From Escherichia phage kvi: a stretch of DNA of 64,000 nucleotides. The stretch lies in the sequence record MN850615.1. One strand, 5' to 3'. Positions 4,220-64,000 of this stretch are shown here, in pieces. The position numbers and the translations under genes are program-made. The notes under the pieces were generated by a model that did no database searches, was not told the DNA's origin, and saw only the letters and a program-made list of their open reading frames with translations. Within the stretch, counting starts at the first letter, position 1, and every line of letters starts with the position of its first letter.

Positions 4220-4320
4220 GTATCCGCGTAGCGGAAGCGAGCACAGCGAGCAATAAAAACACTTCCAGTAATTGATTAATAAATGTTCGAAACAAATTTT
4301 TATTATTCTATAAGATAAGT

Positions 4321-4345
4321 CTTCGTTTTGATCATAATTTAATCA
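4321..4345. repeat. Direct repeat copy 1 (25 bp, CTTCGTTTTGATCATAATTTAATCA)
   Basis: Identical 25-mer recurs at 4470-4494 inside a 410-bp non-coding stretch. Confidence 0.6.
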
Positions 4346-4469
4346 TACATGTAAAAACTACACAAAAGGATATCGCTTCGCGAACCCCTACGGAGTATAA
4401 CATTTGTGTTACAATATGTAGTGATTAATAATTAACCAAAGATACATTTTCTATGTTCTAAAGATCTTT

Positions 4470-44690: not shown

Positions 44691-44719
44691 ATTATACACT
44701 ATTGCGTTACGCTGTCAAC
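44691..44719 (-). promoter_or_regulatory. Early promoter (TTGACA-17-TATAAT)
   Basis: rc of TGTCAA..ATTATA. Confidence 0.6.
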
Positions 44720-45044
44720 CTTTTTGTTCCATGAAAAGCGGTGCTGTTTCTTCTTTCAGTTTAATAACTAGCGCGGAAACTTCATCAAGAAAATCTTTTT
44801 CCATATGAGCAAGCATTGATTTAGAATCTTTGATGACTTTCAAAGAATATTCACTTAGATTTCCTTTTCCTAACAATAATGCAGGATACACACTATGTGG
44901 GATCTCGATTTCATGATATTCGCTCATAGTATAATATTTGTGAATTTTTAAATCTATATTTCTTCGTTGTACGTCCACATCAGCAATGACATACAGAAGT
45001 TCGATTTTATCGCTTTTCTGGGAAAGGGTAGCATTCAAAAACAT
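44715..45044 (-). CDS. Hypothetical protein
   Basis: 109 aa; downstream of promoter at 45074. Confidence 0.5.
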   Translation of the reverse strand: MFLNATLSQKSDKIELLYVIADVDVQRRNIDLKIHKYYTMSEYHEIEIPHSVYPALLLGKGNLSEYSLKVIKDSKSMLAHMEKDFLDEVSALVIKLKEETAPLFMEQKG

Positions 45045-46198: not shown

Positions 46199-46795
46199 TT
46201 AATTGCTTGTCAATACTTTATCAATTATATCTAACAGTTTTGGCTTTCTATTTTCAAATTCTAACATCTCTTCGGGAGAAATGTCAACTACTTCTGTTTT
46301 GTTGAAAAAGTTTGGGTCTATAGCATCAGCAACAAAGTTTCTCGCAAGTGCTGCCGCTTTCTCATGAACATATATTCCCAAATATATCAACTTCTTTCTT
46401 TCGACCTGAATATTGGCAACATATTTACCATCTCGTTTATAAAGACTAACACCGATATATTCAGACGATCGGCCTTTCTGTTTACCCATATTTCTTGAGT
46501 TTTGTTGCTCGTTCGCATCTCTCAAGTTTTCAATCCGATTATCTGTTATAATTCGGTTAACATGGTCAACGTATTTTGGCATGTATCCATGATGCATAAA
46601 GAAAATTATTCTATGCTCTTTATGATGTTTACCATCGATACACACCAATCTGTATCCATGACTAGGATTAACTCCACCCGCTCTAGATCCGACTTTATGC
46701 TTTCTGTTTGTCGATATCTTGCGAATCAGCTTACCGTTATCATATTTAAAGAGTTCATGACAACGAGCATACAATTCAGGATCATATGTTTTCAC
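46199..46795 (-). CDS. HNH homing endonuclease with AP2-like DNA-binding domain
   Basis: 198 aa, GTG start; HNH block (DHVNRIITDNRIENLR) and AP2-like (SEYIGVSLYKRDGKYVANIQ); inserted between 32 and 59. Confidence 0.7.
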   Translation of the reverse strand: MKTYDPELYARCHELFKYDNGKLIRKISTNRKHKVGSRAGGVNPSHGYRLVCIDGKHHKEHRIIFFMHHGYMPKYVDHVNRIITDNRIENLRDANEQQNSRNMGKQKGRSSEYIGVSLYKRDGKYVANIQVERKKLIYLGIYVHEKAAALARNFVADAIDPNFFNKTEVVDISPEEMLEFENRKPKLLDIIDKVLTSN

Positions 46796-56491: not shown

Positions 56492-59260
56492 ATGGCAGAT
56501 TTAAACAGAATCCAGTTTAAACGCACTAGCGCAGCCGGACGTAAACCGGATGCTGGTACGATGAATCCGGGAGAGTTGGCAATTAACTTAGCAGACCAAT
56601 ATCTGCTTACAAAAAATGATGATGGGCAAATTGTTAATTTAAGCTGCCCTCCTGTTTATGATAAAGGCTTTAATGTAAACGGTCGTGTTGTTGTAGATGA
56701 CCTTGTGTGGAGTAATACCGCAAACTATTTCGATGATCCGACCGCACGAAATCTTGATAAATTTGGGGCGTTTCGTACTAATGATATGGATGGTCATCTA
56801 GCATTGGCTTTGCATATTCCCCATCCTAGCGGTATAAATCATGCTCGTGGGTTGGATTTTACTTATGGTTCTAACGTTGTTCCTACTGTAAAAACCTATG
56901 GTTATAACGCTGATGGTGTATTGGCATATTCATATCGCATGTATCACGAAGGTGATAAGCCTAGTCCGTCAGAATTGAATGTGTACAGCAAACAAGAAGT
57001 AGATCGGATGTTCCAGAAGACCATCAACTTTGGTGTAGAAACTGGATGGTTTAAAATTGCTACCGCCATTATTCCGCAAAATGATGGACGTAGCTTGAAA
57101 ATTAGATTGATTGGTGGAAATGGGTGGAACGTAGGACAAACTGGACAATGTAATATTATTGAACTTGTTATAAGGACTAGCAACGGTTCGCCTAAAGGAA
57201 TTAACTTTGTTGCGTATCATCATGTTTCTGGTTACGAGAATCAATTTTGTGCCATTAATACAAGTGATGACACTTATGATATCTATGCATATTACTTCGA
57301 ATTTACTAATATGGTAATGGCTGAATATCAAGCGTCTACCGGTGTTAATTTAACTGTACTTGATCGACCTGAATATGTAGGCGAAAAACCTGTAGCTGAT
57401 CATATCTATGATGCATATACAATACACTCCTTTAACAGTTTCAGTAACCGTGGGACATTAAATTTTGCTGGAAACCATCAAGGCCAATATGACATTGAGC
57501 ATATGAACGAACAACCGACAAATGCTAAAAATATGTTGCGTCGGTTTAGAAGCTCTGCTCTTGCCACTATCTGGCATGAAACCGTTGATGACCAGAATTA
57601 TCGTCTTGCCACTGGCAGTACAGATTCAGGTCAACAATTATTGCTGACAACAACCGGGTTACATGTCAAGAGATTAACATTGGATGGTGGTGCTGCGGGT
57701 GGAAATGCTGGTATTGATATTCGTCGAGGACCAAACGAAGCAAGCCATTTTAATTTTATGGATTATCGCACTGGTCAAGATGTTCGTAATGGCTGGTTTG
57801 GTTTTGGTGATTTGACGACCAAAGATTTTATTTGGTGGAACGATAACGGTCAAAACTCGATAAACTTGGTCGAAAACGGTGAATTACAGATTTCTGGTGG
57901 TAAAGGCCAGAAAATTGTAATGAATAGCGAAGTTGCATTATCTGAAAATGCTCGTTTGGCTGTTAGAGGTGGTAATTATGGCGTGATATTCCGTAATGAT
58001 GGAACGAGCTTTCATCTGCTTACTACCGATTTAAAAGATTCTTTTGGTAATTGGAATAATCGCAGACCGTTCAGTTATGATTTCGCCACTGGTGGATTAT
58101 ATTTAGGTGGTACTGACACCGCACGTTGTTTGCATCTGGGAATTGATGGTAGTACCCGTATCGAGGATAACTTAGTTTTCAGGGCGGGATCTCGTCAATC
58201 AATGGACTACTTAGAATTTGTTCATTGGGGGGCAAGCAATGTAGGTCGAAATAACGTTTTAAGTCTTCGTGACTCAAAAGGGTTTTTAGCAGAATTTGAG
58301 CGTAAAGGTGATAACACCATTCAAAATACATTCTTCGGAAGATTTAAAGTCAATGGTGATTCTAACGTTATTACCATTAATGCTCCTACTGATTCTGATG
58401 CTGTTTATGTGAAAGGTACTTGTAATGATGTAGATAACTGGTATATCGGTAAAGGTGGTGCTGGTAATGGATTAGTTTTTTGTAGTTATAAGACTAATGC
58501 GGCTGTTCATCTCACAGATAATGGTGAGATAGCACTTGCGCCACAAAATTTTAATAATGTTAGTATTAGCAAAGACCGCATCTATATAAACGCTACACAG
58601 TGGGTTGCTAATCATTCCGGTGCATGGGACGGACAATGGCGCGAAGAAGCACCTATCTTTGTTGATCAGGGTAGTGTTGGAGAAGATAGCTATTATCCAC
58701 TTATTAAAGGACATAGCCAGATCACAGGTCAAGGTTATTCTACTAAGGTTGACTTTGGCTTACGTCGTACTCCCCAAACATGGGGACAAGCTGTTATTCG
58801 TGTTGGTTCTGCGGAAAACTCGCCAGCGGCTGGTCATCCTCAAGCTGTATTCGAGTTCCATCATGATGGTACTTTCTATTCTCCGGGTAATGGTAACTTT
58901 AACGATGTTTATATTCGTTCTGATGACCGTCTTAAGATTAATAAAGAAGAGTTAGAAAACGGAGCACTTGAAAAAGTATGCCGTCTGAAAGTTTATACTT
59001 ACGATAAAGTTAAGTCTATTAAAGATCGTAGTGTGATTAAACGTGAAGCTGGTATTATTGCTCAGGATCTTGAAAAAGAATTGCCGGAAGCTGTATCGAA
59101 AGTTGAAGTTGATGGATCTGACGTACTGACAATTTCTAACTCGGCAGTGAATGCTCTTTTAATTAAGGCTATTCAGGAAATGAGTGAAGAAATTAAAGAA
59201 TTGAAAACTCCTTTCTTTACTAAAATTGCTCGCAAAATTAGTAAATATTTTAAATTCTAA
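56492..59260 (+). CDS. 37: Long tail fibre distal subunit gp37 with C-terminal S74-type chaperone
   Basis: 922 aa; N-terminus MADLNRIQFKRT matches gp37; C-terminus SDDRLKINKEEL..VYTYD resembles the intramolecular chaperone. Confidence 0.85.
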   Translation: MADLNRIQFKRTSAAGRKPDAGTMNPGELAINLADQYLLTKNDDGQIVNLSCPPVYDKGFNVNGRVVVDDLVWSNTANYFDDPTARNLDKFGAFRTNDMDGHLALALHIPHPSGINHARGLDFTYGSNVVPTVKTYGYNADGVLAYSYRMYHEGDKPSPSELNVYSKQEVDRMFQKTINFGVETGWFKIATAIIPQNDGRSLKIRLIGGNGWNVGQTGQCNIIELVIRTSNGSPKGINFVAYHHVSGYENQFCAINTSDDTYDIYAYYFEFTNMVMAEYQASTGVNLTVLDRPEYVGEKPVADHIYDAYTIHSFNSFSNRGTLNFAGNHQGQYDIEHMNEQPTNAKNMLRRFRSSALATIWHETVDDQNYRLATGSTDSGQQLLLTTTGLHVKRLTLDGGAAGGNAGIDIRRGPNEASHFNFMDYRTGQDVRNGWFGFGDLTTKDFIWWNDNGQNSINLVENGELQISGGKGQKIVMNSEVALSENARLAVRGGNYGVIFRNDGTSFHLLTTDLKDSFGNWNNRRPFSYDFATGGLYLGGTDTARCLHLGIDGSTRIEDNLVFRAGSRQSMDYLEFVHWGASNVGRNNVLSLRDSKGFLAEFERKGDNTIQNTFFGRFKVNGDSNVITINAPTDSDAVYVKGTCNDVDNWYIGKGGAGNGLVFCSYKTNAAVHLTDNGEIALAPQNFNNVSISKDRIYINATQWVANHSGAWDGQWREEAPIFVDQGSVGEDSYYPLIKGHSQITGQGYSTKVDFGLRRTPQTWGQAVIRVGSAENSPAAGHPQAVFEFHHDGTFYSPGNGNFNDVYIRSDDRLKINKEELENGALEKVCRLKVYTYDKVKSIKDRSVIKREAGIIAQDLEKELPEAVSKVEVDGSDVLTISNSAVNALLIKAIQEMSEEIKELKTPFFTKIARKISKYFKF

Positions 59261-59297: not shown

Positions 59298-60077
59298 ATG
59301 GCAGTAGTTGGTGTTCCTGGTTGGATTGGAAGTTCAGCCGCAAATGAAACAGGGCAACGATGGATGAGTCAAGCGGCTGGTCAATTAAGATTGGGTGTTC
59401 CTTGCTGGATGAGTCAATTTGCAGGTCGCTCGCGAGAAATTATTCATACACTTGGTGCAGACCATAACTTCAATGGTCAGTGGTTCCGTGATAGATGCTT
59501 TGAAGCAGGTAGTACACCTATAGTGTTTAATATCACTGGAGATTTAGTATCATATTCTAAAGATGTTCCTTTATTCTTTATGTACGGAGATACACCGAAT
59601 GAATATGTTCAGTTGAATATACACGGCGTAACGATGTATGGACGTGGCGGTAATGGCGGTAGCAATGGTCCTGGATCAGCCGGGGGGCATTGTATTCAAA
59701 ATGATATTGGTGGGAGACTAAGAATTAATAATGGTGGAGCTATTGCAGGTGGCGGTGGCGGTGGCGGTGGCGGTAACAGGGGTCGACTAGTATTTGGTGG
59801 TGGCGGTGGTCGCCCATTCGGTGCTGGTGGGTCTTCCTCGAATATGGGTTCTGGTGCAACCGCTGGCACTATTTACGCTCCGGGTCAAGGATCTGTTGGT
59901 TCGGGGTCTCTTAGTGCATATACAGGCGGTGCGGGCGGTAACGTTGGTGCTGCTGGAGGAAGATGTAATACTCACGGTAACGGTACAGAATATAACGGCG
60001 GAGCTGCTGGTTATGCTGTTATAGGGTCTGCTCCAACGTGGCAAAATCGCGGAGCTATTTACGGACCGGCTGTTTAG
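59298..60077 (+). CDS. 38: T2-type receptor-recognising adhesin gp38
   Basis: 259 aa; N-terminus [17 protein letters not shown] and glycine-rich motifs. Confidence 0.85.
59748..59776 (+). repeat. (GGTGGC)n codon repeat in gp38
   Basis: Tandem GGCGGTGGC units encoding poly-Gly. Confidence 0.6.
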
Positions 60078-60413: not shown

Positions 60414-61070
60414 ATGCAAGTTTCTGAAAAAGGGAAAGACTTTGCTATCTCAAATGTCCTGCGCGCTATTTTCACAACTAAAAGCACGGAGTTGCTCGTA
60501 CTTCGTGTTTTTGCTGCCGTCGTGTTGTCCATATTAGCATTTGTCGTTTATAGTAAAAACGAGTTATTTGCGCTTTATAAAGAGACTCGTTATGAGACTT
60601 ATGCTCACATTCTCCAGGTAGAGAAAGACCGCAATTTTGATAATGCAGCACAGGAGCAGTTACAGATAGTTCATGTGTCGGCTGATGCCGATTTTTCTGC
60701 TGTTTTTAGTTTTCGTCCGAAAAACCTAAACTATTTTGTTGATTTGGTGGCATATGAAGGAAAGCTACCGCATACAATCGATGAAAAAAATTTAGGTGGA
60801 TTCCCTATCAATAAAACGAGTGAAGAATATCGTAGGCATCTTTTAGGTAAATCCTATTTTACCGATAAAGATTTCCAGTATATTCCATCAAGAGAAAAGA
60901 AATTAGAGAATATCGATATAGGTTTCATGTATTCTTGTCCTATATTCAATCTCGATAATGTCTATTCTGGTAGTATCGCCATTTCATGGAAGAATAAACC
61001 GGATATTGACATTGAGAATTTAGATACTCTTTGCAATCAATCTGCCAGAATCCTCGGAAGGATTAGATAA
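60414..61070 (+). CDS. t: Holin T
   Basis: 218 aa; LQIVHVSADADFSAVFSFRPKNLNYFVDLVAYEGKLP and LCNQSARILGR match T4 holin. Confidence 0.9.
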   Translation: MQVSEKGKDFAISNVLRAIFTTKSTELLVLRVFAAVVLSILAFVVYSKNELFALYKETRYETYAHILQVEKDRNFDNAAQEQLQIVHVSADADFSAVFSFRPKNLNYFVDLVAYEGKLPHTIDEKNLGGFPINKTSEEYRRHLLGKSYFTDKDFQYIPSREKKLENIDIGFMYSCPIFNLDNVYSGSIAISWKNKPDIDIENLDTLCNQSARILGRIR

Positions 61071-61108: not shown

Positions 61109-61353
61109 TGGCGCATAGACGCGCCTGAATCGCATTTTGACGCTGTATGATGAAAACAGGTAGCGTACCAGTCATCGGCTTGTTTGTCTTCGTCAGAAAA
61201 CGCGTAATTGCGTTGTATGCCGTTTTCTACTTTGACCAGTGCAATAGCTGTTTCTGGAAGATCAATCAATCGGACAAAATCGCCATCTTCCCATTCTACA
61301 CGAGCAATATCATAACCCATCTCAAAATAAACAATCGCTTGCTCTAATCTCAT
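61105..61353 (-). CDS. Hypothetical protein
   Basis: 82 aa. Confidence 0.45.
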   Translation of the reverse strand: MRLEQAIVYFEMGYDIARVEWEDGDFVRLIDLPETAIALVKVENGIQRNYAFSDEDKQADDWYATCFHHTASKCDSGASMRQ

Positions 61354-61697
61354 TCTGGAAACTTCCCGTAAACATTCTCTGCCAACTTACGTGCATCGCT
61401 AATAATATCTTTCATGTGATGGTCGTATTGCTTTGCCATAATAAGAATACAATCAATGAAGAATGAATAACGTCTAGAATTTACTAAAAAGTTTTTACCT
61501 AGTGAATCAAACGGATCTGGATCATCAAGTTCGATAGATTCTCTAACTTTAGACAATTCTTTCATTACAAGGTTTACATCGTTTATAATATCTTTTGATT
61601 TATATGCGCCTTTCTTTAACAATATGGCGGTCAATTCTGACGCAGTTTCTTGAAATTCTTTCTGATAAGCTGAGTTTACATCATCGATATTAAACAT
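61350..61697 (-). CDS. Hypothetical protein, tandem paralog 1
   Basis: 115 aa; MFNIDD...ENVYGKFPE. Confidence 0.5.
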   Translation of the reverse strand: MFNIDDVNSAYQKEFQETASELTAILLKKGAYKSKDIINDVNLVMKELSKVRESIELDDPDPFDSLGKNFLVNSRRYSFFIDCILIMAKQYDHHMKDIISDARKLAENVYGKFPE

Positions 61698-61706
61698 AAT
61701 CGCCTC

Positions 61707-62039
61707 TCAAATATTGCCGTAAATGTTTTCAGTCATGGTTCTTGCTTCTTCCAGCATTTTGGTCATGCTCATGGTGTAGTTGTTATCTCGTACAGACTTA
61801 ATAACGACAAGCAAGGAATCTAGGAAAACTTTATATACTCTCCATTTTACGCTATTGTTGAATAGTTTTATATCTTCTACTTTATCGATCAGATAACCTA
61901 AAACAGATAGCGCCTCGTTCACTTCTTCCGTTACTTTACTGCCACTAAACCAGATGGGGTAAAGCTGGATTGACAGCGACCGTGCTGCCTCTTTCAGTTC
62001 GGTCGCCTTCCATGATTCATATTGATCAAAGTTAAACAT
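61707..62039 (-). CDS. Hypothetical protein, tandem paralog 2
   Basis: 110 aa; MFNFDQ...ENIYGNI. Confidence 0.5.
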   Translation of the reverse strand: MFNFDQYESWKATELKEAARSLSIQLYPIWFSGSKVTEEVNEALSVLGYLIDKVEDIKLFNNSVKWRVYKVFLDSLLVVIKSVRDNNYTMSMTKMLEEARTMTENIYGNI

Positions 62040-62051
62040 TATAGAATACCA

Positions 62052-62384
62052 TTACAGATGAAAACCTGTTACGATCACCGCATCGATCATACCGCTAGGA
62101 ATAAACGGTTCGCCCTCTTTTATTTCAACTTTGAATTGATGCCATTTCGCTAATACTTCTTCCGGTACACCCAGCGATTTGGCGTCTGCTTTAGTTTCAT
62201 CCATAATCCAACTAGGCTGCATGAGAGCATAGTTTACATAGTCCATTTCTGGGGTCATGTCATCAATGTTAATATATTTGCAGTTGACGCGTTTCAGAAT
62301 TTCAAATTCTTTATTGTCAACCTGTACCATGTATAATTCAGTAGTTTCTGGAATCAGTTCCCACACAATCAGTACATTTTTCAT
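62052..62384 (-). CDS. Hypothetical protein
   Basis: 110 aa. Confidence 0.5.
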   Translation of the reverse strand: MKNVLIVWELIPETTELYMVQVDNKEFEILKRVNCKYINIDDMTPEMDYVNYALMQPSWIMDETKADAKSLGVPEEVLAKWHQFKVEIKEGEPFIPSGMIDAVIVTGFHL

Positions 62385-62986: not shown

Positions 62987-63274
62987 TTATTTTCGGTTGT
63001 GGTCACGATATGTTTTAAAATATCCCTCGTACCACGGTAAAATATCTGGATTTTTACCACTATACAGACCTTTAACCATCATGTCAATAAGGCCACCTGG
63101 TGTTTGATAGTTTCCAGCTTTTATAAGCTCTCTGATTAAAATCTCTCTGTATATGTCTTTCGGATCTTCGTAATCAACTTGTATTGTGGTTGTGTTCTCA
63201 TTCAATTTGGTTTCTGGAGTATCTCGCATCGCATCCCACCAATCTTTTGTGATCTTCATGTTATTGAATTGCAT
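62987..63274 (-). CDS. Hypothetical protein
   Basis: 95 aa. Confidence 0.45.
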   Translation of the reverse strand: MQFNNMKITKDWWDAMRDTPETKLNENTTTIQVDYEDPKDIYREILIRELIKAGNYQTPGGLIDMMVKGLYSGKNPDILPWYEGYFKTYRDHNRK

Positions 63275-63285
63275 AATTTAACCTC

Positions 63286-63894
63286 TTACTTGCAAACGTA
63301 TTGATCTACATCAATTGCGCCACCGAATGTAGGATGACGTTTTTCGAATCGAATAGTTCCGTCGTTTGGTTCGAAAACGGAGTATTCATATAGATCTTTC
63401 TTGCCAACATTCTTATAAAACCCGCCTTTAGTCATAACGGTTTCTTGTACGTTTGCTTTGTGTACGTTGTATTCGTCAATGTATACAAAATCAACCATCT
63501 TCCCATTTTTAATGGTTACTTTAAGATCTCCTGGTTGATTTCCATATTTGGCATACAGTGGCGCTTCTTTAATTTTTGTGGAAATTCCATCTTTCATACT
63601 CCACTCATAACGAACGGTGCATTGATAGGTAAAAGTTTCGACCTTCGGTTCTTCTACCACTTTTGCTTCCTGTTTCGGTTGTTCTTCTTCAACCTTCGCA
63701 GAAGTCTCTGAATCGCTTTCTGACGCGGTTTCTTCTTTAGGTAATACATTCATCAAGTTTTGGATTTGAGCGTTGTATACAGCCTCCAGTGGCTGAATCT
63801 GCCCGATATTGATCATTGTATCACGAACAGTTTTATTCCAGTTTCGTTGCTCTTGTTTCAGAGACGGATCAATCTTAACAGCCTTAACATACAC
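63286..63894 (-). CDS. Hypothetical protein with acidic linker
   Basis: 202 aa; likely GTG start; helical N-domain, Glu/Lys linker, beta-rich C-domain. Confidence 0.45.
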   Translation of the reverse strand: MYVKAVKIDPSLKQEQRNWNKTVRDTMINIGQIQPLEAVYNAQIQNLMNVLPKEETASESDSETSAKVEEEQPKQEAKVVEEPKVETFTYQCTVRYEWSMKDGISTKIKEAPLYAKYGNQPGDLKVTIKNGKMVDFVYIDEYNVHKANVQETVMTKGGFYKNVGKKDLYEYSVFEPNDGTIRFEKRHPTFGGAIDVDQYVCK

Positions 63895-64000
63895 CTCATG
63901 AAGTTTAGAGTCCAGTGCGGAGATAGACTCATTAGCACAAATAAACTTCTCTGATTTGGTAGTAGCTTTAGCGCAATCAAAGGACGCAGCGTTAGCACCG

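Follow-up and report, generated by a model that had tools for sequence, protein, structure and literature searches.

Two short genes lying side by side to the right of the holin gene of Escherichia phage kvi raise the question of why they differ so much among phages that are otherwise nearly identical, and of what the encoded proteins may do. The genes have been analysed in a stretch of 64,000 nucleotides (sequence record MN850615.1), hereafter called the window. The holin-proximal paralog is denominated open reading frame (ORF) A and the distal one ORF B, and o63, o122, o110 and o95 are neighbouring leftward ORFs. A and B are already deposited as hypothetical proteins, and make up one family in PHROGs, so that databases imply both that they exist and that they are related. 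New is that the two genes form a sharply bounded cassette of ancient alleles, which rivals the tip of the tail fibre in divergence, that the proteins have a confidently predicted helical fold with no neighbour in the PDB, and that the pair is coupled to a Tad2-like gene. A and B resemble the familiar polymorphic accessory early genes found in the hyperplastic regions of T-even phages, and may reasonably be regarded as counter-defence candidates. The Krischviruses, the phages hosting them, occur commonly among coliphages and figure in therapy collections.

A pair of paralogs of predicted helical fold

An earlier note on this DNA had described two adjacent leftward ORFs of 115 and 110 amino acids (aa), both starting with MFN(I/F)D, and had attributed them to a tandem duplication. 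Sizes, coordinates, strand and starts are all as described. The shared motif ENVYG/ENIYG, which the note placed at the end of both proteins, is present, but is located near the C-terminus and not at the very end (Table 1). BLASTP aligns A and B at 28% identity across 116 columns (E=2e-10). The Smith-Waterman score of the pair is 94, against 28 +/- 5 for shuffles of B (n=2000, none of which reaches 94; z=13.3), and comparisons of A or B with nine neighbouring proteins give scores of 21-36 only. The pair thus has significant similarity, far above chance, and the duplication stands. The profile search proposed in the note assigns both proteins to the uncharacterised family phrog_9457, which A matches with residues 12-115 on profile positions 6-107, and B with residues 7-109 on positions 1-104. 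The family consists of RB49p256 and RB49p257 from phage RB49 and of orthologous 'hypothetical proteins' of Krischvirus genomes, and in RB49 the orthologs lie at the two positions that correspond to A and B. No third copy has been found in the six-frame translation of the window with the family hidden Markov model (HMM).

In the tree of the family A and B form separate clades, which indicates that the duplication predates the radiation of the alleles. An ancient rather than recent duplication is indicated as well by the identity of the two proteins, 28% only, and by the lack of B in some Krischvirus genomes. One metagenomic copy, from a more distant phage, groups with B and has A-like features.

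The family appears to be both lineage-specific and locus-specific, because searches find only Krischvirus records and relatives at the same locus. When the segment 60400-63900 is compared by megablast to 50,697 phage records, 59 match, all from RB49-like T-even phages of the genus Krischvirus. The best match is Escherichia phage FL38 (99.2% identity); RB49 is 96.1% identical over 92% of the query, and the same coverage is found in most Krischviruses. In the same set of records, tblastn finds A in 58 and B in 48, every one a Krischvirus. All 58 genomes and all metagenomic loci retain A intact, at an unvarying position. B is missing from 10 of the 58, its absence being clean in genomes of the ECD7 type (ECD7/Brandy).

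Larger collections add little to this picture. A word-indexed search of 5.8 billion proteins yielded 35 clusters; when 1.84 billion representatives were searched exhaustively by HMM, five clusters were found, two of them new. Genomic context, looked up for the new clusters only, is in both the same locus, followed by the Tad2-like gene. Two more loci come from IMG/VR and four from metagenomes. No member of the family was found in prokaryotes (185,579 species, one genome each). A literature search on these genes, on RB49 or Krischvirus with Tad2 or anti-defence, and on DUF2829/Tad2 in T-even phages retrieved no paper on A or B.

Both proteins are predicted to be soluble and mildly acidic, with no transmembrane segments and no signal peptide. 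The isoelectric point is about 5.2 in both; net charge at pH 7 is -4.3 for A and -2.5 for B, and the grand average of hydropathy (GRAVY) is -0.41 and -0.17, respectively. AlphaFold2 models were built on an alignment of 21 family sequences. In the model of A (predicted local distance difference test, pLDDT, 83.1; predicted template modelling score, pTM, 0.78) four helices span residues 4-28, 34-58, 67-90 and 95-110. The model of B (pLDDT 93.1, pTM 0.86) has the same four main helices and one short additional helix.

Foldseek finds no significant structural neighbour in the PDB for either model (best E 0.97 for A and 0.43 for B). In BFVD, the only significant matches to the model of A are members of the family itself, from ECD7 (E=4.4e-8, template modelling (TM) score 0.82-0.91) and JEP8 (5.2e-4). 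Canonical up-down four-helix bundles, as cytochrome b562, talin R3 and the FAT domain, feature four long helices of similar length and are the top non-significant matches, but TM-scores of 0.25-0.39 and root mean square deviations of 8-9 Å indicate that the predicted packing or topology of A and B is different. Searches by sequence are similarly void of relatives. No Pfam family scores above threshold with A or B, and NCBIfam gives no match; among PADLOC defence models only a chance-level match was found for A (10.5 bits, E=0.048) and none for B; the best hit of a sequence profile search of the PDB (E 0.065) is an unrelated fusion construct. Pfam matches at E<=5, collected for each of the 21 family members, were discarded as scattered and mutually inconsistent chance matches.

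A cassette of divergent alleles

DNA identity to RB49, JSE, SSG23 and ECD7, measured in bins of 50 nucleotides (nt), is 96-100% on either side of the pair, and falls to 35-88% from about 62040 to about 61420. Proteins encoded by the window have been compared to those of six other Krischvirus loci. The holin, the Tad2-like protein, o110, o122 and o63 are 95-100% identical throughout; identity to the alleles of the other Krischviruses is 36-52% for A and 68-70% for B. Synonymous divergence (dS) is 1.2-1.3 or saturated in A and 0.8-1.0 in B, against 0.02-0.23 in the flanking genes, which shows that the divergence comes from old alleles imported by recombination and not from local mutation. The ratio of nonsynonymous to synonymous divergence (dN/dS) between allele classes ranges from 0.13 to 0.43 (about 0.33) for A, from 0.22 to 0.27 (about 0.25) for B, and from 0 to 0.24 in the flanks. 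Both ORFs are intact in every genome examined that carries them, and the dN/dS values of A, maintained across saturated dS, point to long-term purifying selection. The alleles of A and B are thus old and kept under purifying selection, and have been exchanged among genomes by way of recombination in the conserved flanks.

The extent of this divergence is exceptional in the window. Nearly all of its 101 ORFs of at least 50 aa are 93-100% identical to RB49, and the only shared ORFs less than 80% identical encode the distal tail fibre protein gp37 (41%), A (50.9%) and B (68.5%). Among near-identical isolates, the two-gene cassette alone diverges as strongly as the receptor-binding tip of the tail fibre. 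In view of this match, the cassette is a probable determinant of intracellular host range or of counter-defence.

Variation is unevenly distributed along A. Residues identical to the RB49 allele are 7/19, 9/25 and 12/24 in helices 1, 2 and 3, and 0/4 in the loop connecting helices 2 and 3. In helix 4 and in the tail they are 14/16 and 5/5, respectively, and both helix 4 and the tail ...ARKLAENVYGKFPE are nearly constant. The GC content of A is 32.5%, versus about 39% in neighbouring genes.

At least six classes of A alleles can be distinguished, represented by window/FL38/AV108, RB49/JSE, ECD7/Brandy, SSG23 and two metagenomic types. B alleles fall into two main classes, about 69% identical to each other. 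Together with the B-less state, these make up a natural allele series. RB49-type B is found combined with at least three different A classes. Window-type A and B occur together in three isolates only. In comparison to RB49, the window carries a rare haplotype, common only to FL38 and AV108. An accessory and polymorphic distribution among close relatives, a trait of phage anti-defence proteins, is therefore found also for A and B.

The arrangement of the two genes varies as well. In genomes of the RB49 and SSG23 types, B and A are separated by a spacer of about 110 bp, which includes an ORF of 36-43 aa (RB49p256.1; RB49 locus 4261-4392). The window lacks this spacer, and A and B are 9 nt apart (61697 to 61707). 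The RB49p256.1 spacer has no similarity to the A/B family; the possibility that its ORF 256.1 is a degenerate copy of A or B was tried with the family HMM, which finds none.

Gene context and possible role

To the right of the holin gene, whose product is 100% identical to that of RB49 t, the window hosts closely spaced leftward ORFs, each labelled 'hypothetical protein' in RB49 and FL38. The one next to A encodes a protein of 82 aa which fits positions 1-71 of the 73 of the Pfam profile PF11195 (Tad2-like, DUF2829); the domain has been precomputed also for a homolog 96% identical (P0039). Across all 58 Krischvirus records the gene is conserved at 95-100%. Its ATG is overlapped by the TGA of A (ATGA), and the overlap is kept in all loci, distant metagenomic ones included, which suggests that the two genes are translationally coupled. 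The adjacency is found also in metagenomic loci L003 and L004; in the former the holin gene comes next after the Tad2-like gene, and the contig of the latter stops short of that point. Phages use Tad2 proteins as sponges for Thoeris signals (PMC13243611), and the 82-aa product may be a sponge for Thoeris signals or cyclic nucleotides in a T-even-like phage of E. coli. No link by sequence to solved Tad2 structures was found for it. The other neighbours of A and B are unannotated by Pfam and PHROG.

The genes o63, o122, o110, B, A and the Tad2-like gene are spaced by 8-12 nt or overlap. A candidate promoter is located upstream of this run, and a hairpin separates the Tad2-like gene from the convergent holin gene (Table 1). 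The RNA fold of the hairpin has a free energy of -23.6 kcal/mol (z=-3.3; 0/200 shuffles equally stable), and the element is probably a bidirectional terminator, ending both the leftward operon and holin gene t. GAGG-type sites are found 5-8 nt upstream of the starts of A, o110, o122, o63 and o95. B has no recognisable Shine-Dalgarno sequence in the upstream interval 62040-62064, and starts 12 nt past the stop codon of o110, which suggests re-initiation or coupling. The T4-type late-promoter motif TATAAATA does not occur in the 60-64 kb interval. From this, from gene orientation and from synteny with T4, early expression of the region may reasonably be inferred. ORFan 263.1, which lies a few genes away, has been placed in a hyperplastic region (PMC2839356).

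The reading that we tentatively favour is that these two small helical proteins bind a host component that is polymorphic, an anti-phage defence protein being the most plausible target. The two genes would probably be transcribed in a leftward early operon o63-o122-o110-B-A-Tad2-like, ending at the hairpin by holin t. Binding would be stoichiometric for each protein, and would neutralise or redirect the polymorphic factor, which would most likely be part of a defence system. Target specificity would reside in the variable helices 1-3, with the constant helix 4 and the C-terminal tail serving as scaffold. Old allele classes would differ by phage lineage, and would be swapped as a cassette by homologous recombination in the near-identical flanking genes; the second copy, B, would widen the range of targets. 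It is possible, though doubtful, that A and B represent a family of counter-defence or host-specificity proteins of phages that is new and structurally unassigned, that their old recombining alleles decide which E. coli strains, through their variants of a polymorphic intracellular defence or host factor, are permissive to a Krischvirus, and that with the Tad2-like gene they form a small counter-defence operon, set beside the lysis and tail-fibre host-range module.

Known counter-defence proteins of T-even phages provide a term of comparison. As T4 Arn, encoded in the same interval, Tad2 sponges and T4 Vs.3/TadIV-1 (PMC13243611), A and B are encoded by small ORFs in a variable accessory region and have a patchy, polymorphic distribution; they lie directly adjacent to a gene whose match to the Tad2-like profile is just above threshold. 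Yet A and B are homologous neither to Arn nor to a sponge or inhibitor of solved structure, and are not DNA mimics of the Arn/Ocr type, as the strong negative charge of these is absent from both (net charge -4.3 and -2.5). Should A and B be inhibitors, the anti-defence catalogue would gain a new family, with a confidently predicted fold for which the PDB has no neighbour; otherwise, they are an ordinary pair of lineage-specific ORFans.

Several points weigh against a counter-defence role. A and B share no sequence or structural similarity with characterised anti-defence proteins, or with entries of PDB, PADLOC, Pfam and NCBIfam. dN/dS is lower than 1, so positive selection is not demonstrated, and relaxed constraint combined with recombination fits the pattern as well. 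Guilt by association involves a single neighbour, whose match to the Tad2-like profile is marginal (27.1 bits versus a cutoff of 25) and comes with no link to a solved structure. Early timing is deduced, and the RB49 record annotates no promoter in this segment. The constancy of the 3' end of A could in part derive from the recombination junction and from the ribosome-binding region of the overlapping gene, and not from the function of the protein.

Rather unlikely is a reading in which A and B belong to the dispensable, lineage-specific ORFans of a hyperplastic region: real genes under weak selection, shaped by relaxed constraint and by frequent recombination with a pool of related phages, with no polymorphic target at all. 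The restriction of the family to one phage genus, the dispensability of B in 10/58 genomes, and dN/dS values higher than in the flanks and lower than 1 all fit, and the t-52 segment is known as hyperplastic and rich in ORFans (PMC2839356; PMC1524935). Drift of this kind is hard to reconcile with the conservation of an intact A at a constant position in all genomes and metagenomic loci, and with long-term purifying selection, as indicated by dN/dS of 0.13-0.43 across saturated dS. Moreover, conservation reaches 95-100% in the small ORFans nearby (o110, o122, o63, and the Tad2-like gene), so drift does not affect the region at large, and confident AlphaFold2 models point to real, folded proteins.

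The correspondence with T4 bears on a further, improbable alternative, in which A and B would serve host takeover and have no part in defence, for instance by modulating host RNA polymerase or sigma-70 as functional substitutes for AsiA and MotA, missing from RB49-type phages. As the earlier note had claimed, the pair lies to the right of holin t and is transcribed leftward. The segment corresponds to the T4 t-asiA-motA-52 interval, in which genes are ordered t, asiA, asiA.1, arn, arn.1-4, motA, motA.1, 52. A and B hence have the same neighbourhood and orientation as T4 asiA, directly to the right of t. The anti-sigma-70 protein AsiA (1JR5) is, as A and B, small and all-helical, RB49 has been reported to lack recognisable motA and asiA (PMC1524935), and a few sigma-factor chains are found among the non-significant Foldseek matches.

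The synteny check suggested in the note retrieves the corresponding interval, but no T4 homolog of A or B. With the family HMM, none of the nine proteins of the T4 asiA-motA interval scores above 6.5 bits, and BLASTP of the window proteins of the segment against the same nine gives nothing (best E 0.15, in a database of nine sequences). Homology to AsiA was specifically considered and rejected: hhalign of the family profile with the AsiA sequence, verified against PDB 1JR5, gives a probability of 3.7%, and the HMM 4.9 bits. An AsiA-like fold (PDB 1JR5/1TLH/6K4Y) was dismissed as well, as no AsiA chain is among the listed Foldseek PDB matches of either model, all of which have E >=0.43. The matches to sigma factors are at noise level (E 3-7, TM-score 0.3-0.4). 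AsiA is moreover conserved where present, whereas A and B are hypervariable, and sigma-70 and RNA polymerase, essentially invariant in E. coli, would not be expected to drive the divergence of alleles to 36-52% identity.

The occurrence of balanced old allele classes in near-identical co-circulating phages is the pattern expected of self/non-self systems, and might be explained by inter-phage competition or exclusion, the alleles marking self versus co-infecting relatives, or guarding the cell from superinfection. The chance that this is so is slight. The T-even exclusion proteins T4 Imm and Sp are membrane proteins, but A and B are soluble, with neither transmembrane segment nor signal peptide; no PADLOC match was found for them, and the cassette encodes neither a toxin nor a nuclease as a partner.

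Slimmer still is the chance that A serves the translationally coupled Tad2-like protein as accessory subunit, chaperone or regulator. The ATGA overlap, kept even in the distant metagenomic loci, would fit such a partnership, but the two proteins do not co-vary, the Tad2-like protein being 96-100% identical where A alleles are only 36-52% identical, which argues against A as a dedicated partner. A relative of the 82-aa protein, detected by tblastn in a Klebsiella phage, is a stand-alone ORF of 68 aa with no A-like neighbour. The related idea, by which A would match the N-terminal half of the longer phrog_1048 (DUF2829) proteins, finds no support, as A does not match phrog_1048 and the Klebsiella phage relative stands alone.

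Very improbable is finally that A and B are capsid-targeted internal proteins injected with the DNA to counter restriction, as the polymorphic T4 IPI-III: T-even ip loci are hypervariable in a similar way, and L-K-E at residues 15-17 of B resembles the site of the gp21 protease, but A alleles do not keep this tripeptide (they read FQE, LQD, MQD, FHE), no late promoter motif is found nearby (60-64 kb), and the N-termini of both proteins seem unlike the T4 capsid-targeting sequence.

Table 1. Position of the genes and elements of the window mentioned in the text.
Feature	Coordinates	Strand	Basis and remarks
Paralog A, 115 aa, starts MFNID, ends ...ENVYGKFPE	61350..61697	-	ORF; phrog_9457, E=1.8e-33
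Paralog B, 110 aa, starts MFNFD, ends ...ENIYGNI	61707..62039	-	ORF; phrog_9457, E=3.7e-30
Divergent cassette	61420..62040		binned DNA identity; right edge at the start of B, left edge inside the 3' end of A
Tad2-like (DUF2829) ORF, 82 aa	61105..61353	-	Pfam PF11195, 27.1 bits (cutoff 25), E=6.4e-6
Holin T (landmark gene)	60414..61070	+	Pfam PF11031, 206.7 bits; convergent with the leftward operon
GC-rich hairpin of 12 bp, GAAA loop	61074..61101		between convergent holin t and Tad2-like gene
Candidate sigma-70-type promoter, TTGACA-17-TATAGT	63059..63087	-	consensus scan only, 11/12 matches; inside the 95-aa ORF
gp37, distal fibre	56492..59260	+	C-terminal Peptidase_S74 chaperone domain
gp38 adhesin, T2/T6 type	59298..60077	+	Pfam GP38, 234.6 bits
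95-aa ORF	62987..63274	-	
C-terminal 238 codons of a 252-aa protein	63286..64000	-	continues past the window end
198-aa ORF	46199..46795	-	HNH_3 and AP2 domains
109-aa ORF	44715..45044	-	no Pfam match
CYTH-domain protein, 199 aa	47997..48596	-	PF01928

Other variable sites of the window

The tip module of the tail fibre differs in the window from that of both RB49 and FL38. The distal fibre protein gp37 is 41% identical to the RB49 protein over 61% of its length, and is followed by an adhesin gene, gp38, of which neither the RB49 segment nor the FL38 locus has a counterpart, despite the 99.2% identity of FL38 just downstream.

A second small divergent cassette is found in the same operon as A and B. 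The ORF of 95 aa is bi-allelic, being 95-98% identical in RB49, FL38 and ECD7, and about 50% identical in JSE, Brandy and SSG23. Its alleles assort independently of those of A and B. The ORF located at the right end of the window is truncated, and is found full length in FL38 and in RB49 (RB49p262); the 252-aa protein begins with a signal peptide, and its LprI (lysozyme-inhibitor, PF07007) domain is weak (22.6 bits versus a cutoff of 22). An ORF of 202 aa with a GTG start at the same end is an artefact of the window edge.

Three other sites lie farther to the left. The ORF of 198 aa is homing-endonuclease-like, adjoins the gene 32/59 region and has no counterpart in the homologous segment of RB49. 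The ORF of 109 aa similarly lacks a counterpart in that segment, where RB49 has a larger 'endonuclease' gene, RB49p240. The CYTH-domain protein is 83.9% identical to that of RB49, while the surrounding replication genes are 96-100% identical.

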